64,000 bases of DNA, from contig JAFXSR010000012.1 in assembly GCA_017525505.1 (NCBI GenBank), forward strand, positions 234,502 through 298,501, written 5' to 3'. Origin of the DNA: Bacteroidales bacterium. Lineage in GTDB: Bacteria; Bacteroidota; Bacteroidia; Bacteroidales; WCHB1-69. A program made the translations under genes and the position numbers. This document shows, piece after piece, positions 12,911-62,752 of the stretch (positions are counted from its first letter, which is position 1; every line of letters begins with the position of its first letter). The notes beneath the pieces are model-generated. The model searched no databases, was not told where the DNA came from, and was given only the letters and a program-made list of their open reading frames with translations.

Positions 12911-12936
12911 ACAGTGAATATTGGATAATGAATAGT

Positions 12937-12967
12937 TAAGGGAGGGTCGCAAGGCTCTCCCTTTTTT
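12937..12967 (+). terminator. Intrinsic terminator
   Basis: AAGGGAGGGTC-GCAA-GGCTCTCCCTT followed by a T run. Confidence 0.85.
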
Positions 12968-13216
12968 AGTGGTCAGTGGTCAGGTGTTAGGTGATGTCCA
13001 TTGTCGGGCGTGTCTAGCATCTCGTTTTGAAGTGCCTGATGATATCCTGGAACACTTCCATTCCGTTTTGTATGACTTCTTTTGGTGACAAAAATACGAA
13101 AATATTCCGAATAATTTACTATTAATTATCAAAAGAATTAAATGTTTATTGCTAACTATTTGGTTTGCAGGGTTGAAAAATTTCTTCAAATCAGTAAAAA
13201 TATAAAACACCTGTAG

Positions 13217-13224
13217 TATCTTTG
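13217..13224 (+). promoter_or_regulatory. Bacteroidota -7 promoter element
   Basis: TATCTTTG upstream of the 13252 ORF. Confidence 0.6.
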
Positions 13225-13251
13225 CAAACAATAAAAACAAATGATTGAATT

Positions 13252-13662
13252 ATGAAAAGCAAAGAGTTAAAAGATCCGATTGCAGAGGCCCGCAGATATG
13301 TGGCCAATGCGGAAAATGTTATCCAAAATGCCAATTATGACCCGGAGCTGAAGATCTATACGGACGGGAAATACATCAAAATGGCGGGGGACACCTTGTG
13401 GAAAGGCTGTCTGATCGCGTTGGATGCGGTGCTGAACATACGCAAGGGCAAAGGTCGTCCCTCCATTGAGAAGTACAAGGAGGCGGCAGGGGAACGCGAT
13501 CGCAAACTGCTGGCTGCGATAGTGGCAGGTTACGATACCATGCATTTGTACATGGGGTATGATGGCACAAAGAATAAGAAAACTTGTGATTCAGGTTTCG
13601 AGTGTGCCAATGCGATCATCGATCGCTGTGCTATGCTATTGCCTAAAGAGGTGTTGGCATGA
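13252..13662 (+). CDS. DUF5618-like small helical protein
   Basis: EARRYVANA...KYIKMAGDTLWKGCLIALD...YDTMHLYMGYDG resembles the DUF5618 family as recalled; has its own promoter. Confidence 0.6.
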   Translation: MKSKELKDPIAEARRYVANAENVIQNANYDPELKIYTDGKYIKMAGDTLWKGCLIALDAVLNIRKGKGRPSIEKYKEAAGERDRKLLAAIVAGYDTMHLYMGYDGTKNKKTCDSGFECANAIIDRCAMLLPKEVLA

Positions 13663-13669
13663 AATAATA

Positions 13670-13784: not shown

Positions 13785-13793
13785 GCCTACATC

Positions 13794-21915: not shown

Positions 21916-22045
21916 GTTTGTGAGGAAACAAAATAAAAATGTCAAGATGTAGAGCGAGGCATTTTTCGTCTTAACGAATGCACGAAGTGCATGACTAAAC
22001 GCCTAAACGCCTAAACGATTAAACAAATTAACAAATCAACAAAAT

Positions 22046-23068: not shown

Positions 23069-24532
23069 CTAATTTGCTAATTTGCTAATTCTCACCACTC
23101 CCATTTCCCCTTCAATCTTATACTGATTGAAAAATGTGGGGTTGAAATCCAATGTCAGACTGTCGGTCTCCAAAAACGGCTTGTAATCAATGCTTTGGTA
23201 TTCCAAATGTCGATTGGGAAGAGTCTCAAAAGTCCATTTTTTCTCGGCTTCCGCATCCGCAAAATGATATTGGATATTGCTGCGGTCAAACTTGATGGTG
23301 TTCATGCCGGGCGCGGATATTTCAAAATGGACGTTGAAGTCATTGCTGTATAGCGTAAAATTGCCGTTCTCATCGGTATAGGTGTTCATGCCGATCCAGT
23401 TTTTGGTCCAGCCACGGACAACGGCATCTTTTATACTTTGTCCACTTTTGCTTTCAACCACTCTTCCTTTGAGGATGATGTTGTTGTACCCCAGCATATT
23501 ATAGTAGTTGGACGGAACTTGATAGTTGTCGGTGGGAATGGTTTTGTCCTTCAGTGTCGGGAGTTCAAGAACCGCGGGTTTGTCCTCGTTGTTTTGATTG
23601 ACCAGACCGGTGAATTGTGCTTCGAAATTCACCCCGTCAGGGCATTCGTGATACTCCCACCAGCCATAGCCTGCCGCATGATACTGTCGGGCAAGAGTGT
23701 AGCTTTGGAGGAGAAACTGCCGCTGGTATTCGTAACTTACGCTGTCGTTGTCGGCAGGAAGGGCAGTCTCACCGACCATCCATGGACGGTCTATGCAATT
23801 GTTGCTGTACCAGCGCATCTCGCTGGGTACACGTAAGGGGTGATAGGTGTGAACTTCCACAAAATCCACGGGAAGAATGGTGGGATCCCACTCGAAAACC
23901 TCGATAGGTTCGGCAAAACCGATGGTGAAAAGCTGATGCGGTGCGTAGTTGTCCATCATCTCGCGCCAGCGGCAAACAATTTGGTAAGCCTCCATTTTGT
24001 CACGCAGTTCAGCTTCATCGAAATACAGAGGTTCGTTGAAGAAGTCGTAGGCCCAAAGATTGCTTTTGTCCGCCAGATGCTGTAGCAAGCCTTCGGTGTA
24101 GCGGATGAGGTTGTCTTCCAAAGGTCTTTTAATCAGCAGCATCACCTTCAGTTGGTATAGTTCCGCTGTGTCTGTCATTTGACCGATGGCATGATAGAGG
24201 GCTCCGAAATCCTTTTCTTCAGGAATAATATCCAGACAGATTCTCACGCAGTTAAAGCCCATGTCGGCAATGTGTTGAAAGTCGTGGGCAAGGCTTGGGC
24301 TTTGGTAGTAATAGGCGGGGATTATGCGAAGTGTGCCGTTTGTGGTGGCCACGATGGGCTTGTAGTTGAGCGTGAGCGGAAACCAGGTCTTTCCATCCAG
24401 CATGAACTGCCTGTCTTGCACATAGACAAAACCTGGGCTTCGGGTGCTGCGCGGGGAGCGGTCAATCCCGGCATGTTTACAACCGCAAAGCAAGGCGCAG
24501 AGCAGGAGGACAAAAAGGCTTAGTTTTCGCAT
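23069..24532 (-). CDS. Clan GH-A (GH5-like) glycoside hydrolase lipoprotein with a carboxypeptidase-regulatory-like domain
   Basis: Lipobox-like LLCGC, MGFNCVRI, NEP acid/base, HTYHP, VGET nucleophile; later KGRVVE...YTDENGNFTL. Confidence 0.65.
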   Translation of the reverse strand: MRKLSLFVLLLCALLCGCKHAGIDRSPRSTRSPGFVYVQDRQFMLDGKTWFPLTLNYKPIVATTNGTLRIIPAYYYQSPSLAHDFQHIADMGFNCVRICLDIIPEEKDFGALYHAIGQMTDTAELYQLKVMLLIKRPLEDNLIRYTEGLLQHLADKSNLWAYDFFNEPLYFDEAELRDKMEAYQIVCRWREMMDNYAPHQLFTIGFAEPIEVFEWDPTILPVDFVEVHTYHPLRVPSEMRWYSNNCIDRPWMVGETALPADNDSVSYEYQRQFLLQSYTLARQYHAAGYGWWEYHECPDGVNFEAQFTGLVNQNNEDKPAVLELPTLKDKTIPTDNYQVPSNYYNMLGYNNIILKGRVVESKSGQSIKDAVVRGWTKNWIGMNTYTDENGNFTLYSNDFNVHFEISAPGMNTIKFDRSNIQYHFADAEAEKKWTFETLPNRHLEYQSIDYKPFLETDSLTLDFNPTFFNQYKIEGEMGVVRISKLAN

Positions 24533-28430: not shown

Positions 28431-28534
28431 AATAACTCAAAAATTTCTGCAAAAGTATAAAAAATCTGAATATGGATAATATTATCTTTGTGGATTGCTT
28501 TTGCTAATTGTTTTAGGATGAGAACTCATCCGTG

Positions 28535-28607
28535 AATTTTGAATTTTGAACTTTGAATTCTTAATATCAATTATTAATTGTCAACTGTCAACTATCAATT
28601 GTCAACT
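28535..28607 (-). repeat. Degenerate heptamer tandem repeats overlapping the anmK stop codon
   Basis: Sense strand AGTTGAC AATTGAT AGTTGAC AGTTGAC AATTAAT AATTGAT, then GAATTCA AAGTTCA AAATTCA AAATTCA. Confidence 0.8.
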
Positions 28608-32843: not shown

Positions 32844-32874
32844 TTTTTTCGTTTTTTTTGTCAAGGCGTGAAGA

Positions 32875-32965
32875 CATGCACTTCGTGCATTCGGTTAGGC
32901 GTTATTGCAATTTTCGTCTTAACGAGCGAACGAAGTGAGCGTCTCCACGTCTCCACGTCTTCACG
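32875..32965. repeat. About 91-bp intergenic element, copy 1
   Basis: Near-identical to 35561-35651 (CATGCACTTCGT...CGTCTTAACGAGCGAACGAAGTGAGCGTCT.CACGTCTCCACG); partial relatives at about 21963-22020 and 39772-39838. Confidence 0.85.
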
Positions 32966-35410: not shown

Positions 35411-35560
35411 AAATTCGGCTGCAAAAATACAAAGAAATTAGCAAATTAGCAAATTAGTTAATGAGCTAATTGTCAATATGTTAGTCTGCTAATGAAATTG
35501 GTGAATTGGATAATTGGCAAAAGAATCCAATAATCTCGTGAAGGTGTTAAAGCGTTAAGT

Positions 35561-35651
35561 CATGCACTTCGTTCCTTCGGTTAGGCGTTATCTCAATTAT
35601 CGTCTTAACGAGCGAACGAAGTGAGCGTCTTCACGTCTCCACGTCTTAACG
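35561..35651. repeat. About 91-bp intergenic element, copy 2
   Basis: Direct repeat of 32875-32965, abutting the stop codon of the 35652 gene. Confidence 0.85.
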
Positions 35652-36443
35652 TTAGTATATATACGGGAAAATCTTATACCTCTTCAGCTTTGTAAACTCC
35701 TCGCCGAAAAATTGGGTGTAGCGCTCGTAAACTGCCTTGGAGCGGGGCACGATGTTGGCGAAACTCCAGATGACGAACACCAAGCCAGCCATCGACCAGC
35801 AGAGTACGGCAAAGCCTACCCATTCCAGAATCTCGCCGAAATAATTGGCGGAGCTGATTTTCTTGAAAGGCCAGCCGTAGGGTATATAATAATTGTTGTC
35901 ATATTTGTCTTTGCGCAGGTCCCGGATGATGCGGTCGGCGGACAGGTTGATGACCATTCCCAAGAAGAAGAGGAAGGTGCCGATGATGAACTGTGGCGAC
36001 CAGAACCAGCTGATGGGATAATAGTCGGGATCGGTAGGTGCGAGATAAAACAGCCATCCGCCCTGCATTAAAGCATTGCAAGTATTAAAAAACACACCCA
36101 CAACGATGATGGAAATGGGCATCATGCTGGTGCCTTTCATCAGTGAGGGAAAAATGATGGATCGTTGCAGATAATGAATCTCAAAGAAGCAAAACATGGT
36201 GAAAGTTACCCAATTGAAAGGACGCCCATATCGCAAGGAAATGAGGTACATGATCAGCATGGCTGCGAAAACAGGTATTTCCATGATAAACCAGCCGGTC
36301 TTACTTCTTACGGAGGCTCCCCATCTGTTGTTGTAGGTCATGCCGTATGCAGGGGTGATGAATTGTAATATGATGAAAACGATCACCCCCAGGATGGTCA
36401 TAATCCATAAGAGATATTGATGAAAAATGCCGAAAATTTCCAT
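35652..36443 (-). CDS. 3-oxo-5-alpha-steroid 4-dehydrogenase (steroid 5-alpha-reductase family) membrane protein
   Basis: PAYG, GWFIMEIP, HYLQRSIIFP, YYIPYG, ANYFGEILEWVGFA, IFPYIY. Confidence 0.88.
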   Translation of the reverse strand: MEIFGIFHQYLLWIMTILGVIVFIILQFITPAYGMTYNNRWGASVRSKTGWFIMEIPVFAAMLIMYLISLRYGRPFNWVTFTMFCFFEIHYLQRSIIFPSLMKGTSMMPISIIVVGVFFNTCNALMQGGWLFYLAPTDPDYYPISWFWSPQFIIGTFLFFLGMVINLSADRIIRDLRKDKYDNNYYIPYGWPFKKISSANYFGEILEWVGFAVLCWSMAGLVFVIWSFANIVPRSKAVYERYTQFFGEEFTKLKRYKIFPYIY

Positions 36444-37530: not shown

Positions 37531-37605
37531 TTTCTATATGAATAAAAATGCAAAGATACAATTTTTTTCAATTAGCAAATTAGTTAATTGAAAAATGTGC
37601 AAATC

Positions 37606-37690
37606 TCCTAACACCTAACACCTAACACCTGATCTCTAACACCTGATCCCTATCCGTCAGTTTTCAACTTTCAACTTTCAGTTTTCAACT
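37606..37690 (-). repeat. Degenerate heptamer tandem repeats at the SDR stop codon
   Basis: Sense strand AGTTGAA AACTGAA AGTTGAA AGTTGAA AACTGA, then GATCAGG TGTTAGA GATCAGG TGTTAGG TGTTAGG TGTTAGG. Confidence 0.8.
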
Positions 37691-38437
37691 TCTTACGATT
37701 GTTCCGTTAAACTGTGCGGTGGGGGTCATGATGATTTCATTGAGGCATACGTGAGCGGGACGGGTCAGCACGAAATCCACCACATCGGCGATGTCTTCCG
37801 CCACCAGGGGGTCGTAACCTTCATATACCTTGTCGGCCTTGGCTTGGTCGCCATGGAAACGCACCACCGAGAAGTTGGTTTCGGCAGCACCCGGAGAAAT
37901 TTGTGACACCTTGATGCCGTAAGGCAAGAAATCGGTGCGCATGCCTTTGGTCAAGGCCAGCACAGCGTGTTTGGTGGCGCAATACACGTTGCCGCCATAG
38001 TAAATCTCATGGCTGGCAGTGGAGCCGATGTTGATGATGTGGCCTTTTTTCTGCTCAATCATCTGCGGAGAAATCAGGCGGGTGACGTAAAGCAGACCTT
38101 TGATGTTGGTGTTGATCATGCGTTCCCAGTCCTCGATGGCACCGCTGTTCACGGGGTTCAGCTCAACGGCCAGACCCGCGTTGTTCACCAGTACATCAAT
38201 GGGCTTGAAAGCGTCGGGAATGCTGGCGATGGCCTTTTCGCATTGGGCATAGTCCTGCACATCGAAGGCAAGGGTTAGCACCTTGCTCTGTGTGGTGCTT
38301 TCGATTTTCTGAGCCACTTCTTTCAGTTTCTGCTCGGTACGGCCGGTGATGACCAAATTGACATTGTGCTGGGCCAGTCTGTATGCGATGGCTTCGCCAA
38401 AACCACTGGTGGCACCGGTAATGAATACGTTTTTCAT
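37685..38437 (-). CDS. Short-chain dehydrogenase/reductase (YdfG-like)
   Basis: TGATSGFG, NNAGLA, YCATK catalytic motif. Confidence 0.92.
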   Translation of the reverse strand: MKNVFITGATSGFGEAIAYRLAQHNVNLVITGRTEQKLKEVAQKIESTTQSKVLTLAFDVQDYAQCEKAIASIPDAFKPIDVLVNNAGLAVELNPVNSGAIEDWERMINTNIKGLLYVTRLISPQMIEQKKGHIINIGSTASHEIYYGGNVYCATKHAVLALTKGMRTDFLPYGIKVSQISPGAAETNFSVVRFHGDQAKADKVYEGYDPLVAEDIADVVDFVLTRPAHVCLNEIIMTPTAQFNGTIVRS

Positions 38438-38562
38438 ATTGTTTTTTTTCAGTTTATAAATTTCAGTTATAGAATTCAAAATCCAAAGTTTAATCTGTCA
38501 TCTAAAATCTTAAATTAAATCTGAATTCTGAATTATGAACTTTGACTTCTGTTCCCTGTAAC

Positions 38563-39609: not shown

Positions 39610-39660
39610 ATATTATATCAGGTTACAGGTTTCAGGTTACAGAATTCAGAATACAAAAAA

Positions 39661-39838: not shown

Positions 39839-39839
39839 G

Positions 39840-43562: not shown

Positions 43563-43626
43563 ATCATGTCAAATTACAATAAGGTCCCCACTAAAACTAT
43601 ATACTATAAACTATGTACTTTATACT

Positions 43627-45027: not shown

Positions 45028-45072
45028 GATGTCTATGTTTATTTGTTGAATTGTTTATTTGTTGAATTATTC

Positions 45073-45339
45073 TTAATTCTTAATTTCCTGTCTCCTGGTT
45101 TTCGCCAGCATCGACTTCACCTCCACTCCTTGCAAACGGCCCAGTTTGCCGGTGAGGCTGCTGAGCTCGTCGGTGGTGCCTTCGACAATCAAAGTAATGA
45201 TGTTGAATCCGTGTTGATGCATGGGTACCCCTTGTCGGGCGATAATCATAGCGCCAAAATCGGACAAAATCCGGTTTACCTCGGGTACAATGCTGGTGTC
45301 TGAAATCAGGATACTGACAGTTCCTATTCTCTTTTCCAT
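45073..45339 (-). CDS. TM1266-family putative iron-only hydrogenase system regulator
   Basis: KRIGTVSILI...VNRILS...IIARQGVP...LTGKLGRLQGVEVKS; adjacent to hydG. Confidence 0.85.
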   Translation of the reverse strand: MEKRIGTVSILISDTSIVPEVNRILSDFGAMIIARQGVPMHQHGFNIITLIVEGTTDELSSLTGKLGRLQGVEVKSMLAKTRRQEIKN

Positions 45340-46308: not shown

Positions 46309-46319
46309 AATCGTAATAT

Positions 46320-48244: not shown

Positions 48245-48284
48245 AACTATTAATTATTAATTGTTAACTATTAATTGCAGGCTG

Positions 48285-49031
48285 TTATTCTGCCACTTCA
48301 TCATACTTCGGCATATCCTTCGCCACTTGTTCTGTCAACTTGTCCATACCTAACAGTTTCTCTAATTGTGCCTTATTGATGTCCGAATCTTTCTTAAGTT
48401 CGTCCAAAATCACCTCACGGGCAATGGCGATAGCAGCTTTCATGTCATAGAGCATGGTTGTTCTCACACGATAGTTTCCATTGCTCAGTTCCTGATAAAT
48501 TTCCATGGTTTTGAAGGTGCGACCAAGTTTCTGTGAGACAATTACTTTGGCGTTCTCTACGGTTTTGGTGATGGAAGCGGCTTCTTTAGCGGAGATTTCC
48601 TGGTTGGCCAAAGCCACATCGGTCAGAGCGGCCACACTGCTGCTTACTTGAGCTGCTATACGCAGTTTGGCAACGTTGTCGGCTTGTGATTGCGCTGCGG
48701 CGAATGAGTTGGCGGTTGCCATTTCCTGTGCCCAGATGTAGCGAGGATAGCCGGATGCTTCTCTATCGTACATTTTCAGCCAGGTTTCATCCAACTGTTT
48801 GGCAATGGGCAGTCCCATGGTTTTCCAGCCCTCTTTTTCCAGTTTTTTTGCTTCTTTTTGCGCCATTTTTTCTGTTTTCTGATATACGGCAGCGTGAAGT
48901 TCTTTCTGCTCCTTCTTCAATTCCTTGTTTTCTTTCTTTTGAGCTTTGCTGTTCTGGGCTGAAACAGGACTTGCCACCATAATACATACGGCCAAAACGA
49001 CCATGCTGAATAATTTGATTGCGTTTTTCAT
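48285..49031 (-). CDS. Conserved exported hypothetical protein, LPP20-like
   Basis: Signal peptide, KEAKKLEKEGW, AAAQSQADNVAKLRIAAQVSSSV pattern; fold call is an inference. Confidence 0.6.
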   Translation of the reverse strand: MKNAIKLFSMVVLAVCIMVASPVSAQNSKAQKKENKELKKEQKELHAAVYQKTEKMAQKEAKKLEKEGWKTMGLPIAKQLDETWLKMYDREASGYPRYIWAQEMATANSFAAAQSQADNVAKLRIAAQVSSSVAALTDVALANQEISAKEAASITKTVENAKVIVSQKLGRTFKTMEIYQELSNGNYRVRTTMLYDMKAAIAIAREVILDELKKDSDINKAQLEKLLGMDKLTEQVAKDMPKYDEVAE

Positions 49032-49222
49032 TTTTGATTGATTTTAATGATTATTATTGATTACAACATTGTTCAATCGCTGTTTTCATTCCTATATAGC
49101 AACAAGTCCACACCAATCTATCAAATATATTTTCTTTTTTTTGAGCAAATGTTTTATCCGCTTAAATATCAGTGATTTGCAATAAAAAAAACAGCAGATT
49201 ATTAATTGTCAATTGTCAATTA

Positions 49223-50062
49223 TCAATTGTCAACTATGTTCACTCCCTGCCACAGCACACGTTTCTCGCTCTTTTTGATTTTCGACAGCCAATTGATGAC
49301 ATTCTCATACGTCACGGTTTCCATGAACGGGTAAGATTTCTTGAGGGCAACAATCAGAATAACTCCTTGCTCAATATTGTCTCTTACGTCACTGATTTCC
49401 ATGGTGTATTCGAAGGGCGAGTTGTATAAAAACGACTTTCCTTCGGGGGGGAAGTTCACAGGAATGTCCGCTTTGAGTTGCACATCCTTGAAAACGCCTT
49501 CAAGTGGGTATATTTGTGCATTTTCAGAGGATTTTTTGCCGAAAAAGAAAATGCGAAGATAACAATCCATGGAAGGTGTAATGGTAAATGTCATTTTCTC
49601 CCCCGAAAGATAGGTGTTCTTGAAACCTTCGGTTTTGAACTGGAAAGCGAGGTCCTCCTTGCTTTCCTCCACCAGTACTTCAGCGCGGATGGTAGTGCTG
49701 TATTTGATAAGTTGGTCGTCTGTAAACACTGGCGATGCATCGGTTCGCTCTTTGATGCGAACACGTCCTTCCAACTCAATGCGGCTTAACTCTGAAGAGA
49801 TTTCCTGAAACTCGGTGCCCGTGTTGCCCATTACGATGATGGTGGTGGAGGATACATCCTCGAACACACCGGCTTCCCGTAAAGCCTCCTTTTTCGCATT
49901 CAGCAAGGCCTGTGCCTGACCGTAAGCGGGAGTCTCGTTTTGGTTGGCCACGTATGTGCCCGTAGCGGTCACCGTGCGGGTTTGTTCCCGCTGGGCGAAG
50001 AGAGTTGCGTTGGTACACAACACCAGTACCATAATAATTCCGATTCGAATGTGTTTTTTCAT
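49223..50062 (-). CDS. Exported protein with a DUF4384-like C-terminal domain
   Basis: Signal peptide; QALLNAKKEALREAGV N-domain; YLSGEKMTFTITPSMDCYLRIFF...IYP. Confidence 0.6.
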   Translation of the reverse strand: MKKHIRIGIIMVLVLCTNATLFAQREQTRTVTATGTYVANQNETPAYGQAQALLNAKKEALREAGVFEDVSSTTIIVMGNTGTEFQEISSELSRIELEGRVRIKERTDASPVFTDDQLIKYSTTIRAEVLVEESKEDLAFQFKTEGFKNTYLSGEKMTFTITPSMDCYLRIFFFGKKSSENAQIYPLEGVFKDVQLKADIPVNFPPEGKSFLYNSPFEYTMEISDVRDNIEQGVILIVALKKSYPFMETVTYENVINWLSKIKKSEKRVLWQGVNIVDN

Positions 50063-51876: not shown

Positions 51877-52075
51877 GCTTTGTGTTCTTTACTGTTTTGT
51901 CAGATTTTTCTTCTCCAAATATATGTGCAAAGATACAATAATATCAACGTTTTTCAGTGGATGTGCTTGAAATTATTTTGTGTTTATACTCAATAAATTA
52001 GAAATTAGATTAAAATAATTTAGTAATTATATATAGAAATATTGACTTTGTTTATCTGCTTTACCTGCAGTTACT

Positions 52076-53386
52076 TTATGTTAACTTTCCAATTTTCAAG
52101 CCGAGCTTCAAAAACATACTATGTCTTGCAATGTGGTATGTATATTTGATAGGTGTCCAAGCAAAGGAAAATCGATCATGATTATTTGTCCATTGACAAT
52201 AAACGAAATAATATCCTATACATACTGTGAATCTTTCGATATCAACACCTAGGCCAGAATATATGGCATAGCTCGGATTTTTAAAACCCTCCCTTAGAAA
52301 TTCTACTCCAGGGGATAATTCTACGTATGGTTGAATTAATTTGTTGATAGGATAAGAGCCACGTAAATCAAGATGTAATGAGATAGACCACTTAGAATCC
52401 GTATCCCAACAATTGCCACTACTATTCCAGAGGTATTTATCTATAGGCCAACTACGAACTTGACCTATATTTCTGTTAATGTTTGATAATATTCCGATGT
52501 ATCCGTAATCATATATTCTAATACCGAAACTCCATGCTAATAAATTCCAACTTGCTTCAAAATGAGTAACTTCATTGTCAATATTTGTACTTGTACTACC
52601 TATGAAATCAAGACCCATACAGAAATAAGTTTGAAATCTTGTTCCTTTGATAAAAGGTCTGGGGTTATATTGTTTGTTTTTTGTGGGATTATACTGTGCT
52701 ACATTTTTGGTGGAAGAATAACTTGTTTTTGATTTTGTCTCTTGATTTGTTTTAAAAACCACTTGTTCCCCATACGCTATACCAACGCTATTGGTGGCGT
52801 ATGCCCTTACGTAATATTTGCTTTTTGGGGAGAGATTTGATAAGGTAGAGGAAAAGAACCATTTTGCGGACCCTTTTGTGTGGCTATCATAGATTGTGGG
52901 CTTTGCTTTTTTACTCCAGCAAAAACCGGTTGAGGTAATCTCCGAACCCCCAGTGGATGATATATCACCAGTGGCCGTAGCTGAATAAGATGTGATGTCG
53001 GTGACAGAAATTGTCAAAACGACAGGCAATGATAAGACTGGTTTTGCTCGTACCAAAAAAACAACTTTATCTTCTACAAATTTTTCCTTCTCCGCCAAAA
53101 CATCCCACACTATGGTTTTGTGACCTTCTGCAACACTCTTGCCCACATCTCCGCTAAGATTATGAAGTTCGATGTATGTTTTCCCGCCATCTATTGAAAG
53201 GTGCAGCGAAATCTCTGCCTGCTTGTCCAAATCATACGACACATGAATGGTTTTGTCCACCTGCTGCGCAGTGACATTGGAAACGGTTTGGGAGTATGTT
53301 GCCGTTGGTAATATAAAAAGTGCTAATAGCCAAATGATTAGTTTGGCAAGAATGTTTTCTGTATGAATTGTAGGATTACTTTTCAT
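52076..53386 (-). CDS. Exported protein: conserved N-terminal module, FN3-like domain, probable beta-barrel
   Basis: Signal peptide; VSNVTAQQ...SGDVGK...IVWDVL; YYVRAYATNSVGIAYG; alternating aromatic C-terminal strands. Confidence 0.65.
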   Translation of the reverse strand: MKSNPTIHTENILAKLIIWLLALFILPTATYSQTVSNVTAQQVDKTIHVSYDLDKQAEISLHLSIDGGKTYIELHNLSGDVGKSVAEGHKTIVWDVLAEKEKFVEDKVVFLVRAKPVLSLPVVLTISVTDITSYSATATGDISSTGGSEITSTGFCWSKKAKPTIYDSHTKGSAKWFFSSTLSNLSPKSKYYVRAYATNSVGIAYGEQVVFKTNQETKSKTSYSSTKNVAQYNPTKNKQYNPRPFIKGTRFQTYFCMGLDFIGSTSTNIDNEVTHFEASWNLLAWSFGIRIYDYGYIGILSNINRNIGQVRSWPIDKYLWNSSGNCWDTDSKWSISLHLDLRGSYPINKLIQPYVELSPGVEFLREGFKNPSYAIYSGLGVDIERFTVCIGYYFVYCQWTNNHDRFSFAWTPIKYTYHIARHSMFLKLGLKIGKLT

Positions 53387-53395
53387 GAATACAGG

Positions 53396-54226
53396 TTATA
53401 TGTCAATCTTTAAGTCATCTGCTTTTTGAGATTGTTGATTAAGAAAAGATAACAAGTGTTCGAAATCCGGGTAAACTGTTGATATGTCTATCCCCATTAA
53501 TGCCAACTCTTTTAACAAGCTCTTTTTACTGTCCTTGTCAATTAATGCCTGATTTTTGTGCCAATTGGGCATTCCCTCAATTTGCTTTTCATGGAATTGA
53601 TGTTGGGGATTGTCAGATGGTCTTAATGGCGCTATAATAAAAGCACCTCTTTGAGCTGTAACCCGATTGTTGTTGTATGGTGATAAAAAGAATTGAGGTG
53701 TATATAACTCTTTTTTCCATTTTTCAAATCTTTCATTGGGAATATTAAGTGATTTCCTTTCAGACTCAATAATCATGTCGTATTCTGTGGAATTAAATAT
53801 ATTTTTCATTACCATATCAGCAATGAGTTTTGGATAATATTCGTTTTCTTCACCATCAGCACAATAGCAAAAGACTTTCCCATCTTTCTTTTCTTCATCG
53901 GAACAAGCAAAAAACAAAGCAATTAATGGATTTGATGTTAAATCCAAGAGCCGAGTGTGTAGGCCATAATGTTGTAATACAATCATTTTCTCCAAATTTG
54001 TTGGGTACTCCTGAAGATATTTCCAAGCATACCGAAACGTATCACGCAATAATTTATTCTCATCAGTGCCGGGTTTCCTAAAAATCGAAGGGGTTAGTTT
54101 CCATTCTGCATCAGCTTGGCCTCGAAAGAACAAATGGTCTTGTTGCCATGTAAGATCGGCGACCTGGATATATTTACAATTGCGGACCCATTCAAGATAG
54201 GATTCTATTGAGGTTATTTTGTCCAT
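53396..54226 (-). CDS. FRG domain protein
   Basis: FFRGQ, LTPSIFR, QHYGLHTRLLDLTSNPLIALFFAC, AQRGAF, VYPD. Confidence 0.93.
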   Translation of the reverse strand: MDKITSIESYLEWVRNCKYIQVADLTWQQDHLFFRGQADAEWKLTPSIFRKPGTDENKLLRDTFRYAWKYLQEYPTNLEKMIVLQHYGLHTRLLDLTSNPLIALFFACSDEEKKDGKVFCYCADGEENEYYPKLIADMVMKNIFNSTEYDMIIESERKSLNIPNERFEKWKKELYTPQFFLSPYNNNRVTAQRGAFIIAPLRPSDNPQHQFHEKQIEGMPNWHKNQALIDKDSKKSLLKELALMGIDISTVYPDFEHLLSFLNQQSQKADDLKIDI

Positions 54227-54255
54227 AGCGTAATTTAATAAAAAAGTAGAATTAA

Positions 54256-54954
54256 TTAATCTTCTATATATGCGGTTTTTAGAAAATAAACATTAGCTTC
54301 CTTGTTAAGGTAAAAAACAAATTTTAAGTTATGTTCACCAGATCTTATTTTAGAGATGTAATCCGTTTTTATATTTGGATCGTTTTCCAAATCTTGACAA
54401 AGAAAGGCTTTAACTAATGCCACCATAAAATGATGAATCCAAGACATGCTTTGTTCACCTTTTTTAGTTGTTACAGCAAGTTTTTGGAAGTTGAAGTGCT
54501 TGAAAGTGTGAAAAAGACCTCCGATAAATTCATTTTCCTTGTCTATTCTATAAAAATCCAAGCGCAAAATCCTGTCCCTTTTTAATCCTTTTTCATCGTA
54601 TTCACCTATGTATGCAAATTTTTCTTGTGAGAAACTTTCTTTGAATTTTTCAAAAGGCATATTTGCATATAAAGTGTTGTGTAATCCCCTTAAAACATCT
54701 ATGGTCATTCCTGTGCCAAATAAATTCGAATTCTGTTTAACAACTTCTAAGAGCCTTTCATTGATGATTAAATCCTCAAAATAACGACAAGGTAAAATGA
54801 AATAAGGATGTGCTTTTTCAAATAATGCAACCTCCCCACAATGCAATAATTGTATGGCAGGGTGAGCCAACCAGGAATCCTTACCTTCGCTTACCGAAAT
54901 GCTTTTTGAAATTTCGTCGATGTCGTTTAAGAATTGTTCTTGAAATTTGTTCAT
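54256..54954 (-). CDS. Hypothetical cytoplasmic protein
   Basis: 232-aa AT-rich ORF co-oriented with its neighbours; GGLFHTFKHF and C-terminal FLKTAY. Confidence 0.7.
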   Translation of the reverse strand: MNKFQEQFLNDIDEISKSISVSEGKDSWLAHPAIQLLHCGEVALFEKAHPYFILPCRYFEDLIINERLLEVVKQNSNLFGTGMTIDVLRGLHNTLYANMPFEKFKESFSQEKFAYIGEYDEKGLKRDRILRLDFYRIDKENEFIGGLFHTFKHFNFQKLAVTTKKGEQSMSWIHHFMVALVKAFLCQDLENDPNIKTDYISKIRSGEHNLKFVFYLNKEANVYFLKTAYIED

Positions 54955-54998
54955 TGTTATTCTCTCCCTTTATATAAATTGTTATAATAGATGGTTTC

Positions 54999-57900
54999 TT
55001 AATCTTTCACACAGCGGACAGAAAGTCCACTGTAATTGCCATAACCTGATGCGTTAAATTGGCAATTGTCAGAGGACAAATAGCGTCCCCATGATCCGTC
55101 ACCAGATGCACTGGTAGTACTCCAAAAGGTTGCTTGATAACCGAAATCAACATATTCACATAGTCCAAAACTAGCCAATGTGCATCTGCCAGCTGGTAGA
55201 GCTGAGAATCCAGTAGCGTTATTGGTTGACATGTTGTTTCCTATGAGACAATCATTACTATTGTTGATGGGCCAATTTGTAGTTTCTGCCAAAGCCTTAG
55301 CAATGAAAGTGGTTTCATTACCGCATATAAAATCATCAATACTACTTACATAATTTGCCATTTGTGTCCATTCCGCATCACTCGGTACATGCCATCCGTT
55401 AGGACATATACCTTGTACTCCACTTGGATTAGATGTGCTTGAAGCAGCTCCGTGCATTACTGCAGCCCAGTTGTATAAATAACCGTATGTGTCTATATTT
55501 GAGATATTATTGTCTGGATAATAGCGGTATGGTGTCATTGAGCTTGTATTATGACTCCAATTGATACTCATTCCATTGGCATAATGTGTGGTTCGTAAGT
55601 TTTCTTTCATCCAGCATTGGTTGCCGATTTGTACGGTGTGATAAACATGGCCATCATAGTCTGTAAGAGTCGCTGCATTTGGGCAAGGGTCACCACCAAA
55701 TCTTGTTGTAAAACTCTCCTGATTGCCATATAATGTAATGTTTGTATTGAGGGTGGCGTATGCTCGTATGTAGAAGGTAGTATTTGAAGAGAGATTTGTA
55801 ATATTGCTCGTAAATTCTCCAATGCCGCTGCCATCAATAGTATAATTATCATTGATGGTTGGGTTTTGTGAAGTGCTCCAGCAGAAACCACGGGCAATAA
55901 TTGTATCCATTCCCCCGTATGTGATATTCCCAGCCATCAAAACAGAGTTATTTAAGATATTGCTTGCCGATGCTGTTGTTATTGTCGGAAGTATCATTGG
56001 ACTTTCATCTCGAAGGCAACGGACAGAACGTAGATATGTTCCGCTCAAGCTATTCATAAATGTTTGATAAGAAGTGTTAGTCAATTGAAAATACAGACCA
56101 TGAGTATCACTTGAATAATGTGATCCTGTAGACGAATAAAAAACTGCTATGGTTCCGAAACCTTCGCCCCCCACACCTGCTGGAACTGCTGAAAAACCTG
56201 TTGCATTATTTGCATTTCGATTGTTACCTATTGCACAAGTGTTAGAACTACCGTTCCAATATGCAGTCGAGGCTAAAGCCTTAGCAATAGAACTTGCGTC
56301 AGTACTATCGCATAAGAATTGGTTCTGACCACTCACATAATCTGTCAACTGTGCCCATTCCGCCTCACTGGGCATGTGCCAGCCAGTGGGGCAAATACCT
56401 TGAACATCTCTTGGATTATTGCTACTTCCAGTAGCGAGATGCATTGCGGCAGGCCAATTATACAAATAACCGTAAGTGGTTACATTTAGACTGTCTCTAT
56501 TTGGATACCGGCGCCATGCCAGAAATGGATAATATTCAGCTATACTGCTCCAAAGGTATATGTCATCACTATTAGCGTAATGCGTGGTACGAAGATTTTC
56601 TTTCATCCAGCATTGCGATCCAATGACTACAGTGTTATAAATGTTTCCGTCATAATCCGTAAGTGTAACAGCGTCTTGACAAGATTCTCCGTCAGTGCTT
56701 GTCGTAAAACTAATTTGGTTGCCATACACTATAGTATTTGTATTATTTGTTACATAAGTTCTTATATAATAAGTCGTTCCAGGAGAAAGATTGGTCATAT
56801 AATGAGAGAAAGATTCGGAACTATTCCAATCTGTTGTATGATTACTATTGATGGTCGGATATTGAATGGTATCCCAACAAATACCACATTCGTCAATTGG
56901 GTAGATGTATTAATTGTACCGCTGCAAATGGCAGAAATACTGGTGATATAGGTGGCAGGCAAAGTTGTTACTGAAGGAAGTGTGGTGAATTGAAGATCTG
57001 TCCCGTATGCGATTCCAACGCTGTTAGTGGCGTATGCCCGTACATGATAGACAGTACCAGGGGAAAGATTTGTAAGATTACTTGTAAAACTACCCGTTCC
57101 GCTACCATCACTAGTGTGATTATTAGCAATTGTTGGATTTTGATTGGTACTCCAGCATACACCCCGAGATATTATTGCTGCTCCGCCATTTGAGTTAACT
57201 GTACTCCCACAGGTTGCTGTGGTTGTGCCTATATTTAAAATGTTGTTGGTACTCACTGTAGGAACAATACTGTTAACGGTTACTGTCACACTTGCACTGC
57301 CGGTACAGCCATAGCTGTTTGTTCCAATTACGGTGTAAGATGTGGTAGAAGTTGGACTGACGGTAATACTTGCTGTCGAGGCATTAGTGCTCCATTGATA
57401 ACTATTTGCTCCAGAAGCTGAGAGTGTGGTATTTTGACCATAGTTGATGGTAGTGTTGCCTATGATATTGATATTTACGGTGTTACATAAGGTCGTCAAA
57501 CTTTTTTGTTCTCCATAACTTGTTCCAACACTATTGGTGGCGTATGCACGTACATAATAGGTTGTGTTTGGTGTTAGTCCAGTAATATTGCTGGAAAAAT
57601 TTCCTGTGCCAGTACCGTTGGTGGTATGTGAATTATTTATTGTGGGATTTTGCGAAGTGCTCCAACATACACCACGGGCTGTAACGGTAGCTCCGCCGTC
57701 AGATGTAACATTCCCGCCGCAGGTAGCTGCAGATGTGCCAATATTTGAGATGACGTGTGTCGTTACAGTCGGTGCTGTATTAATGGTTACCATAACACTT
57801 GCAGAACCAGTGCAACCATAGCTGTTTGTTCCCACTACTGTATAAGTGGTGTTTGATGTTGGACTGACCGTTATACTTGCCGATGTAGCGTTTGTGCTCC

Positions 57901-59290: not shown

Positions 59291-59325
59291 ATCTTGTGTT
59301 TCTTATTTTCAAACTTTTTTCATGA

Positions 59326-60195
59326 TTACATAGCCAAACGCAAACCCACCGCAAACGAATTGTTGGCTTCGGGCAGGCAATTGCGGCATTTGCAGCGGGA
59401 ATATGCAGCTTCGTAGGAGAAACTGCCACCACGTACCACCCGTTTCTCTCCGTAAGAAGGACCTGTCGGATTGTCAACATGGGAATATGGATATTCCCCA
59501 TAATAGTCAGCACACCATTCCCAAAGATTGCCGCTCATGTCATATAGTCCTAACTCGTTAGGAGTAAGCATGGCCACAGGATGCATGGCACCATTGGAAT
59601 TGTCCTTATGCCAAGCCACTGCATTGGCATTGTTGCTGCCACTGTATAAATAATCATGGGAAACTGTACCACCACAAGCGGCAAATTCCCATTCCGCCTC
59701 GGTGGGCAAGCGGAATCGCAAGTTGGAATAGCTGTTCAGCTTGTTGATAAATTCCAAAGCTTGTGTATAGGAAATGTAATTGGCAGGGTAGTTATCACCT
59801 TTGCCGTATTGCTCGTTCCAGAGCTCATGGCAGCCCATAATGGTTTGCCACTGTTGCTGTGTTATGGTCGTTTTGGCTATATGGTATTCTGACAAGTAAA
59901 CACTGTGAGTGGGTCCTTCATCTTCAATGCCACTGGAATAGGAACCCATATCGAAAACACCACCATTGATTTTAACCATAGAGGAAGCAATTTCGCGTAC
60001 TGTCTGTTTCACATTTTCCGGCAGGTCATTATCATTCCAAACAATGGTTAGATGGTTCACTTTGTCCGCAGGATATAATTTGGAATTCTGATACAGGTAA
60101 TAGCCCTTGTCAAAATAGGAGTCTTTCTCGCAGGAGACAGCTATTACGGCTGTCAGGAATAAGATAAAATATAGGATTGGTATTCTGTTTTTCAT
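59326..60195 (-). CDS. Formylglycine-generating enzyme (FGE-sulfatase/SUMF1) domain lipoprotein
   Basis: Lipobox AVSC; FDMGS, FRLPTEAEWEFAA, PNELGLYDMSGNLWEWC, RVVRGGS, GLRLA. Confidence 0.92.
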   Translation of the reverse strand: MKNRIPILYFILFLTAVIAVSCEKDSYFDKGYYLYQNSKLYPADKVNHLTIVWNDNDLPENVKQTVREIASSMVKINGGVFDMGSYSSGIEDEGPTHSVYLSEYHIAKTTITQQQWQTIMGCHELWNEQYGKGDNYPANYISYTQALEFINKLNSYSNLRFRLPTEAEWEFAACGGTVSHDYLYSGSNNANAVAWHKDNSNGAMHPVAMLTPNELGLYDMSGNLWEWCADYYGEYPYSHVDNPTGPSYGEKRVVRGGSFSYEAAYSRCKCRNCLPEANNSFAVGLRLAM

Positions 60196-60207
60196 AGCGA
60201 AGCTTAT

Positions 60208-61044
60208 TTATCTGTTTCTCTTTTTATTAGGAAGACAAAAGCCTACACCGGCTTTGGCCTCAACCGTTTTGAAATTGGTGGTGACCACTTCTGCCGAAAG
60301 GGCGAAGCGTTTAATGTCGAATAAGAGTCCGAAAGACACATCCACACCATGATAAGTACGGGCGGGATAGCTGTACCAGTGCTGGTCGTAAGTTTGCAAG
60401 GTCAGGGTGCGGTAGCCGTAGCCAACGCCAAACAGCATGTATAGCGGTTTGCAGGGACGTACCACCAAACCTGCTTGTACGGAGAGACGGGCTGTCTTAT
60501 GCTTTCCGTTCAACAGGTAGAAATCCCCGTCAACCAAAGGCTTGTACATGCCTTTGAAGTTGAAATTCGTCATGGCACTGACAAACCATCCCACATTTTT
60601 CGCCTGTCCCACTTTGAAGCCATACGACCATTGTGGCAGGGGACTGTAGGCGGCGTTTAGGGTAAAGAAGGTGTTGTATGGCATTTCCGCCCGGCGTTTC
60701 TTCTTCCATTGTTTTTCCGCATTGCCATCCACACGAACCATGAAAACGAAATCATCTCCAACCAATTCCGCCATTTCTTCCAGCACATTCCACACGATTG
60801 TTTTTCGGCCGGGACCAATGGTTTTGCCCACATCTCCACTTACTTGTTTTAGCTCCCGATAGGAATTGCCACCATTAGCGGAGATATAGACGGAAATGTC
60901 CGCTGCTTTATCCAAAGAGTAAGAGATGTGAATGTTCTTGTCCACCTGCTGTGCAGTAACATTAGAGACATTTTGTGCCCATAGGCTCTGGCAGCATACA
61001 GTCACTAATGATAGAATTACAAGTTTTATTGATAGGCCTTTCAT
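60208..61044 (-). CDS. Exported protein: conserved N-terminal module plus probable small beta-barrel
   Basis: N-domain paralogous to that of 52076-53386; amphipathic strands GVGYG and KAGVGF. Confidence 0.65.
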   Translation of the reverse strand: MKGLSIKLVILSLVTVCCQSLWAQNVSNVTAQQVDKNIHISYSLDKAADISVYISANGGNSYRELKQVSGDVGKTIGPGRKTIVWNVLEEMAELVGDDFVFMVRVDGNAEKQWKKKRRAEMPYNTFFTLNAAYSPLPQWSYGFKVGQAKNVGWFVSAMTNFNFKGMYKPLVDGDFYLLNGKHKTARLSVQAGLVVRPCKPLYMLFGVGYGYRTLTLQTYDQHWYSYPARTYHGVDVSFGLLFDIKRFALSAEVVTTNFKTVEAKAGVGFCLPNKKRNR

Positions 61045-61075
61045 TCTTAATTATTCATTCTTAATTCTTAATTAT

Positions 61076-62752
61076 TCAGAATCTCCAGTTTTGCCAGCTG
61101 TCTTGCACCTGCAGAGAGGTATTTACTTCGGGAGTTTGGTCTTTGCGGTTCACACGCAGACTGCTTTCACCTACGCTTTCATTTAGGTAATCAAACAATT
61201 CAGAATAGTTGCATTCGCCTTTGCTGTCTTGGAGTTTCTTCAGCAGGAAATAAGTAAACATGCCATGTTTTTTATCTGTATAAGGCAAGGCTGTCTGATC
61301 TGCCGCGGTGGCTGAGAATACCACAATATTTCCACTTAGAGCGTCTTTCTTCGGCGTTACTTTGATACCACGGGAAGCTACCAATCCCATGTCACGACCT
61401 CCGCCGCTGAAACAGGCGTCCAGAAACACAGTGATACGCTGGGCATTTGTGGAGCTCAAGCTCTGGTATAAGTCGTACAGGGCAATGGCGGAAGTGAGAT
61501 TGGAGGCATTGACATCCACGGGAATCAGGTAAGGTTCCTTGGTATTTTCATTGGGAAGTCCGTGTCCCGCATAGTAGAAGATGATTTCAGCTTGCGGGTC
61601 ACGTGCCGCCAAACGGGTAATGAAGTCAATTTCCTGATTCATTTTTGCGGAGGTGGCATTGTTCAAAAATGAAATATTTCGTGCATCTACGCCCAATGTT
61701 TTCTCACAATACTCTTTGAACATGGTGGCATCTTCCGTCGCAAAGGGCACATCCTGCTCACTGTTTAGACCTCTTTGATAAGAGTGGTAATCCTGATTTC
61801 CGATGATGATAGCATAACAATGGGGATTGGATTTGTTAGTTTGAGGAATGTCGCGATCCACGTCCGAACGCAACGACACGTCTTCAATAGCTGTATCTTT
61901 GATAATGGGAACGACAGTTATGGTGCCACTGGCCAAGGGCTGGTTCAGTGTCAGATTGATGTCTTTATTCTGTCCGTATTTGCCGTGTTTTTCAGAGATC
62001 TCCACTTTAAGAGGAAGCGAAGTTCCTTCATATCTTCCGTTTACTATCAGTTGGAAATTCAGGGTTTGGGTTTCTCCCGGACCCCATGTCGGGAAAGTGA
62101 ATAAATCTTGTCCGCTGATATTAAGCACATTGTCAGGATGCTTAAGTTTAACAGTGACATTCTCTCCTATGCCTTGTTGTATGTTCTGTAACAGGATCTG
62201 CAAATTGAATTGTTTTTGTTTTTCCAGAACACCGCCATTGTCACCTGAAACGATATAATCTTTGACCACAATCAAAGGTTCTTGGAATTTACGGGTTTGC
62301 ACACGCAGTTTATAAGGTTCCGTGTTGAAACCGAGCGGTTCATCCACATAAACCGTGAATTCCGCTACGCCATCAGCTGTTTTCATGGTGGTGGTGATAG
62401 GAAATTCAACTGTAGCAGTACCATTCACTTTAATGCTTGGAATCTTTTTGTCTGAAACAGTGATGCCATTGGTGGTACCCGAGGCTGAAATTTTGGCAGT
62501 CAATCCCAAGCCATCACCTAAGCCAATGTTTTTCAGTTTCATCACAATCTTACATTTCTCATTGGCATCAATGGCCTTGTTGTCATCCTCATCCACAAAG
62601 TAGGGTGCTTCCACAATCTCCCACAATGGTGGTTTTACCTCTTTGGTAATGTTAAAACTCATGCGAGGGCTGGTGGCTTCCGATTGTGCCGTTATCGTTC
62701 CTGTGTACAATATCAGGAGCAATAAGGCAACAAATAGTTTTCTTATTTTCAT
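61076..62752 (-). CDS. Exported caspase-family (peptidase C14) protein with Ig-like domains
   Basis: Signal peptide; YAIIIGNQDY, FYYAGHG (His), FLDACFSG (Cys), HGMFTYFLL, QTP. Confidence 0.92.
   Translation of the reverse strand: MKIRKLFVALLLLILYTGTITAQSEATSPRMSFNITKEVKPPLWEIVEAPYFVDEDDNKAIDANEKCKIVMKLKNIGLGDGLGLTAKISASGTTNGITVSDKKIPSIKVNGTATVEFPITTTMKTADGVAEFTVYVDEPLGFNTEPYKLRVQTRKFQEPLIVVKDYIVSGDNGGVLEKQKQFNLQILLQNIQQGIGENVTVKLKHPDNVLNISGQDLFTFPTWGPGETQTLNFQLIVNGRYEGTSLPLKVEISEKHGKYGQNKDINLTLNQPLASGTITVVPIIKDTAIEDVSLRSDVDRDIPQTNKSNPHCYAIIIGNQDYHSYQRGLNSEQDVPFATEDATMFKEYCEKTLGVDARNISFLNNATSAKMNQEIDFITRLAARDPQAEIIFYYAGHGLPNENTKEPYLIPVDVNASNLTSAIALYDLYQSLSSTNAQRITVFLDACFSGGGRDMGLVASRGIKVTPKKDALSGNIVVFSATAADQTALPYTDKKHGMFTYFLLKKLQDSKGECNYSELFDYLNESVGESSLRVNRKDQTPEVNTSLQVQDSWQNWRF

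Follow-up and report, generated by a model that had tools for sequence, protein, structure and literature searches.

Dispersed tandem heptamers lying between genes form a known, unexplained class of repeats, to which the arrays described here belong. They are degenerate tandem repeats of 7 or 8 bp at the gene junctions of a rumen Bacteroidales bacterium (GenBank assembly GCA_017525505.1), first noticed between positions 12914 and 61078 of a 64,000-nucleotide stretch of contig JAFXSR010000012.1 (positions 234,502 to 298,501 of the forward strand), hereafter the window, to which coordinates without a contig name refer. Across the genome these arrays crowd against stop codons, with the C-poor, G-bearing strand directed away from whichever gene is nearest. 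The best explanation, which we hold with a little more belief than doubt, is that they are intergenic simple-sequence arrays, similar to the short tandemly repeated repetitive (STRR) sequences of cyanobacteria, which were amplified within a single clade of a genus of rumen Bacteroidales and are shaped by slippage-type turnover together with a strand filter at the transcript level.

The STRR heptamers of heterocystous cyanobacteria were reportedly described by Mazel et al. in 1990 as dispersed intergenic repeats, present at many loci and of unknown function; their units include CCCCAGT and TTGGTCA. The present arrays differ from them in phylum, in units and in the inclusion of octamers, and these two STRR units are not notably enriched as words in the genome. 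The comparison with STRR sequences, already drawn in a first-pass annotation made from the letters of the window, therefore holds in kind, that is, as dispersed intergenic tandem heptamers. A cyanobacterial origin was considered and rejected, since HIP1 occurs only 6 times, the gene content is of the Bacteroidales type and the STRR units are not enriched. Bacterial interspersed mosaic elements and repetitive extragenic palindromes (BIME/REP), as well as BOX elements, are modular, spacer-filling repeats with GC hairpins, which follow stop codons and vary between strains; the core here, in contrast, is a tandem 7/8-nt array and not a conserved palindrome of 30-40 nt. A literature search on intergenic tandem heptamers in Bacteroidales found no paper.

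Intergenic heptamers have also been described as GGGAATC in Xanthomonas and GGGGA(C/T)T in Nostoc PCC 7120, where their function is unknown and their features were tentatively laid to G-quadruplexes; the same paper cites three tandem heptanucleotides in Calothrix PCC 7601 (Rehm et al. 2015; PMC4692102). As far as the relevant parts of that paper extend, both systems have a period of 7 with a strong non-coding bias (here 218 arrays, with 83% of array bases non-coding), a G-rich strand which is sense within 50 bp after a stop, overlap included, and antisense just 5' of open reading frames (ORFs), a scarcity between divergent ORFs (here 0.90 against 1.71-1.82 arrays per kb), a preference for about four units, and extensive variation of length and sequence between close species. 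Unlike the GGGNATC units, those described here are AT-rich with 0-2 G and have no G-quadruplex potential (9/500 arrays); they fall into about 70 families of heptamers and 57 of octamers and have no single consensus, with octamers nearly as common as heptamers, and their host is an anaerobic Bacteroidales bacterium lacking Shine-Dalgarno (SD) sequences.

Direct repeats of TAACTGA are known from marine Beggiatoaceae, some cyanobacteria and five Bacteroidetes, and show, as here, a patchy phylogenetic distribution and indels between strains in steps of 7 nt (MacGregor 2015; PMC4679880). Within the sections of that paper which bear on the comparison, both sets are mostly intergenic heptamers whose forward orientation gives stops in three frames and overlaps the stop of the upstream gene (here 89/119), and the commonest unit of the present arrays, CTGAAAA, lies one mismatch from CTGATAA, a rotation of TAACTGA. 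There, one unit dominates, whereas here there are many, and TAACTGA is not among the 40 commonest of the 70 heptamer families. The TAACTGA sets, moreover, lie mostly a few nt 5' of starts in the forward orientation, whereas here the TGA-bearing arrays hug stops and the start-side arrays belong to G-poor families. The alternate RNA polymerase beta-prime described in the same work was set aside as a lead, as according to those sections it occurs in two species only.

Array census and unit families

The genome under study (G000) is a short-read metagenome-assembled genome (MAG) of 2.74 Mb in 85 contigs, with 46.6% GC and 88% completeness, in which array copy numbers may therefore be collapsed. 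Its gene map comes from our own dicodon ORF caller, whose start positions are for that reason approximate and whose stops are exact; the 2187 genes leave about 86.4-86.5% of the genome coding and 13.6% non-coding. Arrays were called with Tandem Repeats Finder (TRF), in a strict set of score at least 40 and a placement set (n=575) of periods 7, 8, 14 and 16 and score at least 36, with 3 shuffles preserving dinucleotides in 300-bp blocks as the control. At the strict threshold 218 arrays of period 7 are found, against 1, 1 and 0 in the shuffles, and 168 of period 8, against 1, 0 and 1, while neighbouring periods are scarce (6 arrays of period 6 and 8 of period 10); the genome-wide periodicity scan suggested by the first-pass annotation thus yields a clear excess.

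The total load is about 500 tandem 7/8-nt arrays, or 0.7% of the genome, with median lengths of 27 and 24 nt. Among the 70 heptamer families the commonest are AAAACTG (43), AAAATTC (26) and AACTGTC (25), and among the 57 octamer families AAATTAGC (27), ACGTCTCC (26) and AATGTGCT (26); stepwise "gradient" arrays are also present. Copy numbers drop sharply after four units, with 125 arrays of 4 copies against 42 of 5 for period 7 and 89 against 10 for period 8, the counts at 2 copies including chance matches. At least four GGG or CCC tracts occur in 9 of the 500 arrays, and units with 0-2 G cannot form G-quadruplexes; the drop after four units is there all the same, which speaks against G-quadruplexes as its cause.

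An origin by chance, or by AT-rich low-complexity composition, is virtually out of the question. The units are indeed AT-rich (A 0.33, T 0.33), and at score 30 TRF also gives 52-79 matches per period in the shuffles, yet the excess at score at least 40 is 100-200-fold and confined to periods 7 and 8. AT-richness alone is ruled out by a congener of similar GC (G008, 44.0%) with 0 arrays in 80 kb of contiguous syntenic DNA, and composition alone by repeat-free spacers, which lack the polarity described below.

Placement and strand polarity

The 575 arrays of the placement set comprise 379 that are intergenic, 135 that straddle a gene end and 61 inside called ORFs, so that 83% of array bases fall in non-coding DNA and 16.7% in coding DNA. 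Straddled ends are 124 stops and 15 starts, and the enrichment at stop codons that had been suspected from the window is thereby borne out genome-wide. Arrays are present in 242 of 1485 tandem, 45 of 233 convergent and 42 of 206 divergent spacers, at 1.71, 1.82 and 0.90 arrays per kb of spacer, respectively. They are twofold enriched against stops and twofold depleted against starts: under a liberal null of uniform placement, with an intrusion of up to 20 nt into ORFs allowed, 64 arrays would be expected at either end of tandem spacers, where 124 are observed at stops and 36 at starts, and convergent spacers have 44 at stops against 28 expected. Array starts scatter between about -20 and +10 nt relative to the stop and mark no sharply defined place of insertion. 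The -7 promoter motif TAnnTTTG is most frequent 20-30 nt 5' of start codons, and in upstream regions which contain it the arrays lie 5' of the motif in 75 of 90 cases, which indicates that they mostly fill the stretch from a stop codon to the next promoter.

Such positions are not those of contingency (phase-variation) loci, a class of simple sequence repeats that was considered and rejected. In these loci the repeat is located within an ORF or amid the promoter elements of surface or restriction genes, and expression is switched when the copy number changes; here the arrays lie after stops or 5' of the -7 motif (75/90), beside housekeeping genes such as anmK, thiL, hydG and prs. Inside confident long ORFs 39 arrays were found, in orientations without stops (e.g. 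C36:162198-162868 and C68:29156-43795). These would give peptide repeats of 7 or 8 residues, and in some cases the ORF may extend across a spacer that has no stops.

The strand rule is general. At gaps of up to 10 nt, the G-bearing strand points away from rather than toward the gene in a ratio of 104:25 at tandem stops, 37:5 at convergent stops and 45:8 at tandem starts, the ratio over all divergent spacers being 45:12. Close to stops, the sense strand of the arrays has A 0.41, G 0.23, T 0.25 and C 0.12, and near starts A 0.40, C 0.21, T 0.32 and G 0.07. Both classes are thus A-rich in sense, so that the arrays before starts mostly belong to other families and are not reverse complements of those after stops. 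A replication-strand bias is rejected by the even distribution between strands (222 on the plus strand against 236) and by the like behaviour of plus- and minus-strand genes. Amplification of a local background skew is likewise ruled out, as repeat-free spacers have G 0.182 against C 0.186 after stops and G 0.153 against C 0.164 before starts.

The first-pass annotation had seen one orientation at gene 3' ends and the complementary orientation before starts, with pairs that could fold back in messenger RNA (mRNA). Its first claim is confirmed by the tandem and convergent ratios, the sense strand being the G-bearing one. Of the second, the opposite G polarity before starts stands (45:8), but the units there are mostly different, A-rich and G-poor families and not complements. 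Fold-back pairing is not general: inverted pairs of one family within a spacer number 11 in 165, against 5.6 expected, and the folding scores differ little, array-bearing spacers having a median z of the minimum free energy (MFE) of -1.07 and -1.77 and array-free ones of -0.57, in a small, weak test of 45 spacers per class and 12 shuffles each.

The symmetry of the polarity around genes in tandem, convergent and divergent spacers would suit a role of the arrays as transcription insulators, whereby a C-rich, G-poor strand on incoming read-through or antisense RNA would load Rho and the G-rich outgoing RNA would favour R-loop pausing, in part replacing intrinsic terminators. The position of the arrays 5' of the next promoter (75/90) and a rho gene with a long N-terminal extension in the genome are in line with such a role, as is the lower frequency of hairpin and T-run terminators where arrays are present (19/73 array-bearing against 94/241 array-free convergent spacers, and 31/216 against 141/643 tandem ones). 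This depletion is modest, however, and the arrays, with medians of 27 and 24 nt, are short relative to rut sites, which usually span roughly 70-80 nt. Cyanobacteria, moreover, are to our knowledge generally held to lack Rho. Nostoc nevertheless obeys the same strand rule, as far as the relevant part of Rehm et al. goes (PMC4692102), and on balance an insulator function appears improbable.

Stop codons and array-encoded tails

Of the arrays that overlap a stop, 89/119 carry stops in all three sense frames, and the first-pass annotation had proposed that the arrays often supply the stop codon. Overlap and short array-encoded tails are frequent, as it had stated, but stop supply as a purpose is not supported; it looks like a mechanical by-product, separable from polarity, which arises because the unit lengths are not multiples of three. 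Arrays at a gap of 0-10 nt after the stop still have the G-bearing strand pointing away in 48:13, although three-frame stops are found in 28 of them in sense and in 22 in antisense. A need for stop codons is thus ruled out as the cause of polarity in non-overlapping arrays, and since polarity is kept where sense stops are not in excess, it is a G/C rule. The individual tails read in the window are correct: anmK and the gene at 49223 both end in VDN* on the common stretch GTTGACAATTGA, followed by near-identical variant units, the gene at 23069 ends in RISKLAN* and that at 45073 in EIKN*. In all, about 120 genes of the genome end in array-encoded tails, which matters for annotation.

The heptamers after stops are one related superfamily, with YTGA in the sense strand of 61 of 105 and in the antisense of 9, and led by CTGAAAA, TTGACAG and TTGAAAG. 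This relatedness, and the distance of a single mismatch from TAACTGA as given in the part of MacGregor's paper on that repeat (PMC4679880), could be read as a sign of periodic RNA or single-stranded DNA binding sites for an oligomeric protein (S1, Csp or another), forming a post-transcriptional network such as has been proposed for the TAACTGA repeats. The recurrence of one unit family in separate genera and the sharp drop in copy number after about four units would agree with it. Against it, very many unrelated unit families obey the same rule, and the units at one junction differ between close species; this idea is very doubtful.

Turnover and distribution among relatives

Nine further species of the genus (G001-G009) were compared with G000, along with more distant genomes that include G031, from another genus of the family, and G015, from another family. 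The AAAACTG family was traced with a 21-nt pattern of three units, at most 2 mismatches being allowed, for which the reversed pattern gave 0-1 matches. It has 74-134 matches in G000, G002, G004, G006, G007 and G009, and 20 in the 74%-complete G001, against 0, 1 and 0 in G003, G005 and G008. In 15 other genera of the family it occurs in bulk only in G031 (38 matches), one other genus having a single match, and outside the family several matches are found only in G015 (9), with one each in two genomes. The array-rich species share 86-97% identity with G000 in ThiL, against 79-82% for the others; they are thus its nearest relatives by this protein, and the family was probably gained once.

Counted over all families in contiguous syntenic DNA, the density per 100 kb is 38 in G007, 32 in G002 and 27 in G009, against 6.7 in G005 and 0 in 80 kb of G008. 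A general poverty of G003 was rejected, given 16 arrays of other families in 60 kb (a sample biased to PF05635 genes); the species is poor only in the AAAACTG family (0 genome-wide) and over 13.7 kb of syntenic DNA (2 arrays). One region of it (L132, G003:C95:95000-114999) has very long heptamer arrays of up to 30 copies, with the units GAAAGAT, AAGTGGA and CTTTCCA, which fill successive spacers around a PF05635 gene in this congener without the AAAACTG family. The median orthologous spacer is the shorter one in G008, at 40 against 93 nt (n=15), and in G005, at 8 against 83 nt (n=7), and the orthologous spacers of G003 and G008 are short and empty.

Between G000 and G007, 17 orthologous array spacers could be compared, of which 4 have an array in G000 only, 4 in G007 only, 3 have unrelated units, 3 share a unit and differ otherwise, and 3 are the same; as the first-pass annotation had envisaged, a junction that is filled in one congener may be empty in another. 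The high-scoring segment pairs of blastn between congeners end at array spacers but run on through spacers without arrays. G000 and G007 have HydG proteins of 100% identity, yet of the two only G000 has the imperfect 37-nt array after the TAA. Data from RNA libraries consist of contigs of 4 runs, in which transcript ends, strand and level are not readable and DNA may be included; these contigs span arrays (e.g. record 13 of X2 over 36670-37857), and have array-less alleles at 43585-43645, where they come from a related strain, and at 39616-39841. Replacement or loss of arrays is thus far quicker than divergence of the genes beside them, with whole spacers replaced between congeners. The strand rule persists despite the turnover of units, since sampled regions of G007, G002 and G009 have 42 arrays pointing away against 9 toward. 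Array spacers thus break alignments between congeners, which matters for strain typing of rumen MAGs.

Copying, mobility and associated genes

Among 208 imperfect arrays, 74 pairs share at least 32 nt with at most 2 mismatches, against 27-36 in controls with shuffled unit order. One imperfect 37-nt array is identical at two loci, and anmK and the gene at 49223 have about 40 nt of the same variant-unit order, last codons included. A composite of arm, loop and arm, seen by eye, is common to non-orthologous spacers of G002 and G009. Of the PF05635 genes, 5 of 6 in G000 and most of 9 in G003, G031 and G015 have arrays on both sides. One junction holds a cargo gene of the kind the first-pass annotation had proposed to look for: the spacer between the glycosyltransferase and SDR genes contains a DUF5618 gene in G004 (intact) and G006 (truncated) only, with an 18-copy GTGGTYA array on its stop.

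These findings, together with the replacement of whole spacers where flanking proteins are 96-100% identical, are what would be expected of a small non-autonomous mobile or recombining element landing at gene ends, with the arrays as arms of modular, partly palindromic spacer cassettes that are copied between loci, sometimes with small genes. The first-pass annotation had likewise spoken of footprints of an element, and the shared unit order and the identical 37-nt array speak for it. Against it speaks the scatter of array starts around the stop, without a sharp point of insertion, and by-eye inspection of filled and empty junction pairs showed no target duplication. The 70 heptamer and 57 octamer families and the minority share of same-family inverted pairs (11/165 against 5.6 expected) also stand against such an element. 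PF05635 copy number, considered as a correlate of array load, was rejected, as G003, G005 and G008 have 3-5 copies and the array-rich species 2-8. A mobile element is thus an unlikely explanation, albeit one with definite observations on its side. No link of an enzyme to the arrays was found, no transposase or REP-associated tyrosine transposase (RAYT) search having been made.

A bolder proposal, and a long shot, is that the arrays, instead of arising passively by slippage, are written or copied by a dedicated activity, possibly linked to the PF05635 (four-helix-bundle, Avd-like) and DUF5618 cassettes, their polarity being fixed at transcript ends, where they would act as bidirectional insulators replacing terminators. 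If so, finding an AAAACTG/TAACTGA-like unit in genera and phyla that are separate would be the mark of a common system spread by horizontal transfer.

DUF5618 has 7 matches in G000. A paralogue cassette is present in the window at 13252-13662 (+) and at L016:11837-12247 (-), with its own TAnnTTTG promoter followed by GC hairpins. Runs of a 22-25-nt module occupy 39660-39840, 32865-32940 and 35540-35625; each module is a short GC hairpin with a GAA/TTC loop (e.g. GCACGAAGTGC), then ACTCCCC or CGTCTCC, and these modules are common to spacers of G004, G006, G007 and G009.

Arrays and neighbouring genes of the window

At 15 of the 17 window sites where polarised arrays had been noticed by the first-pass annotation, TRF calls periods of 7 or 8, or the doubles 14 or 16; at the other two, around 12914 and 37570, degenerate runs of 2-3 units are visible in the sequence but fall below the TRF threshold. 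TRF places the 15 sites at 12968, 21995 and 22022, 23069, 28533 and 28579, 32940, 35435, 35626, 37607 and 37662, 38448/38520, 39619, 43596, 45036/45043 and 45069, 48248, 49204, and 61043. Counted by array, the strand rule is obeyed by 13 of 17 in the window, with 2 ties and 2 contrary cases, both being the second array of their spacer and one lying 8 nt from a start. The genes encode, among others, FISUMP-domain proteins, HydG, 2-oxoacid:ferredoxin oxidoreductase, a TonB-dependent receptor and a GldK-like lipoprotein.

On the plus strand, the stop of the gene for a 1924-aa protein is followed at 12914..12983 by a weak degenerate heptad run, a hairpin and T-run terminator, and AGTGGTC x2.3 (TRF site 12968). 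The octamer arrays CTAAACGC x2.9 and AACAAATC x2.8 (21995..22043, +), G-poor in sense, end 2 nt 5' of the start of a 2-hydroxyacid dehydrogenase gene (22046, +). The remaining arrays belong to the minus strand. At 23069..23090 an octamer array (sense AATTAGCA x2.8) lies within the last 22 nt of the gene 23069-24421(-) and encodes RISKLAN and the TAG stop, and at 28533..28607 two heptamer arrays follow anmK, sense AGTTGAC/AATTGAT x4.1 over the stop and then sense AAATTCA x3.9.

Three sites lie around a receptor operon. An octamer array at 32940..32965 (-; sense TGGAGACG x3.2) begins 1 nt past the stop codon of the gene for the TonB-dependent receptor and adjoins a dispersed ACG-phased module which is repeated at 35600. 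Octamer arrays at 35435..35517 (-), reading AAATTAGC x2.9 and AATTGGAG-like x2.8 on the plus strand, lie 5' of the operon promoter and of a thiamine pyrophosphate (TPP) riboswitch, and a further one at 35626..35652 (-; sense TGAAGACG/TGGAGACG x3.4) abuts the stop of a steroid-dehydrogenase-like gene, 35652-36443(-). The riboswitch (35327-35416, -; Rfam RF00059, 54.8 bits against a gathering threshold of 54.3) is in the leader of the receptor gene, 32967-35276, and the receptor and a downstream PnuC-like transporter are probably a thiamine-uptake operon.

The spacer at 37570..37691 (-) is composite: a weak octamer run of AATTAGCA adjoins the promoter of the glycosyltransferase gene, and is followed by CCTAACA x3.4 (sense GGTGTTA; TRF 37607) and TTTCAAC x4.3 (TRF 37662), the latter (sense GTTGAAA/CTGAAAA) overlapping the stop of the SDR gene with the tail VRS*. 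Degenerate arrays with periods of 13 and 7 nt (TCTGAAT x4.6) at 38448..38551 (-) separate the stop of thiL from the start of the SDR gene, and 9 nt 5' of the thiL start a G-poor heptamer array (39619..39649, -; plus CAGGTTA x3.4, sense TAACCTG) is found where G007, G002 and G009 have unrelated units. Directly after the hydG TAA lies an imperfect heptamer array (43590..43626, -; sense AGTATAA-like x4.4), which is absent from this junction in G007 and G002 (HydG 100% identical). The 45-nt intercistronic spacer between the TM1266-like gene and hydG (45036..45090, -) consists of arrays only; sense AAGAATT carries the stop of the TM1266-like gene (EIKN*), and a G-free 16-mer x2.1 runs to 8 nt 5' of the hydG start. 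Further on, TATTAAT/TTAACTA x4.1 (48248..48277, -) lies 8 nt after the stop of the gene 48285-49031(-), sense TTGACAA/TTGATAA x4.3 (49204..49237, -) spans the stop of the gene 49223-50062(-), giving VDN* with the unit order seen at anmK, and sense AATTAAG/AATGAAT x4.4 (61040..61073, -) lies 2 nt after the stop of a caspase-like gene, 61076-62722(-).

Other repeats and insertions are also present in the window. The 1924-aa ORF (7136-12910) contains at 7825-8598 an in-frame tandem repeat of 150-159 nt x5, and the segment 6404-13794 is absent from the syntenic place in G007, which has 142 nt instead. The ORF 50074-51876, called as encoding a helix-turn-helix (HTH) domain, has tandem repeats of 12 nt x6 (50279-50351) and of 11 nt x4 with 100% identity (50620-50704); any change in copy number of the 11-nt unit would shift the frame. 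A PIN-domain toxin gene with a small upstream partner is found at 45901-46652 (-), and the segment of 45.4-50 kb has no counterpart on the syntenic contig of G007. At 52000-56000 the GC content falls to 36% over FISUMP and arabinanase-like lipoprotein genes with low coding scores in our own model; this region may be a horizontally acquired island.

Discussion

The arrays fill the dispensable stretch of DNA that separates a stop from the promoter or start which follows, and they often reach a few codons into the ORF. On the explanation favoured here, their origin and turnover would take place at the DNA level, through slipped-strand mispairing and unequal exchange, with some copying or conversion between arrays. 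An ORF entering an array in sense would be closed within three units, as a stop triplet within 7- or 8-nt units comes up in every frame, and the array would thereby seem to supply a stop and a short tail, such as VDN*, RISKLAN* and EIKN*. The strand rule would be set at the transcript level, by a selective filter on the 3' tail of the mRNA or on the SD-less, A-rich, G-poor Bacteroidota leader, and would be due neither to G-quadruplex formation nor to a need for stop codons.

Several observations weigh against this explanation. Slippage by itself does not account for an amplification restricted to periods 7 and 8, for the abundance of the AAAACTG family in 7 of the 10 species compared within the genus, in 1 of 15 other genera of the family (G031) and in one genome of another family (G015), or for the relatedness of the after-stop heptamers as one superfamily (YTGA 61/105 against 9), one mismatch from the TAACTGA of Beggiatoaceae. 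Recent arrays may be imperfect from the outset, as suggested by the hydG array, absent in G007 although HydG is 100% identical. The excess of pairs with shared variant-unit order (74 against 27-36, at least 32 nt) suggests copying and not only growth in situ. As for the filter, the background depletion of G before starts is mild (G 0.12-0.15 against C 0.14-0.19), the selective filter being something that we infer, and the C-poverty after stops is left unexplained by it.

Reports of heptamer arrays at gene ends go back to 1990, and of their strand rule to 2015, but have offered neither a function nor a mechanism. What is new in the present work is that the strand rule and the cut-off at about four units hold for AT-rich arrays without G-quadruplex potential, which weakens the sole structural explanation in print; that the supply of stop codons is separable from polarity; and that arrays are replaced wholesale between congeners. 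Array load varies sharply within the genus, the commonest family being missing from three congeners, one of which has no array in 80 kb of syntenic DNA. As gene order is otherwise shared across array-rich and array-poor congeners, these rumen Bacteroidales offer a natural comparison for finding the cause of the arrays.

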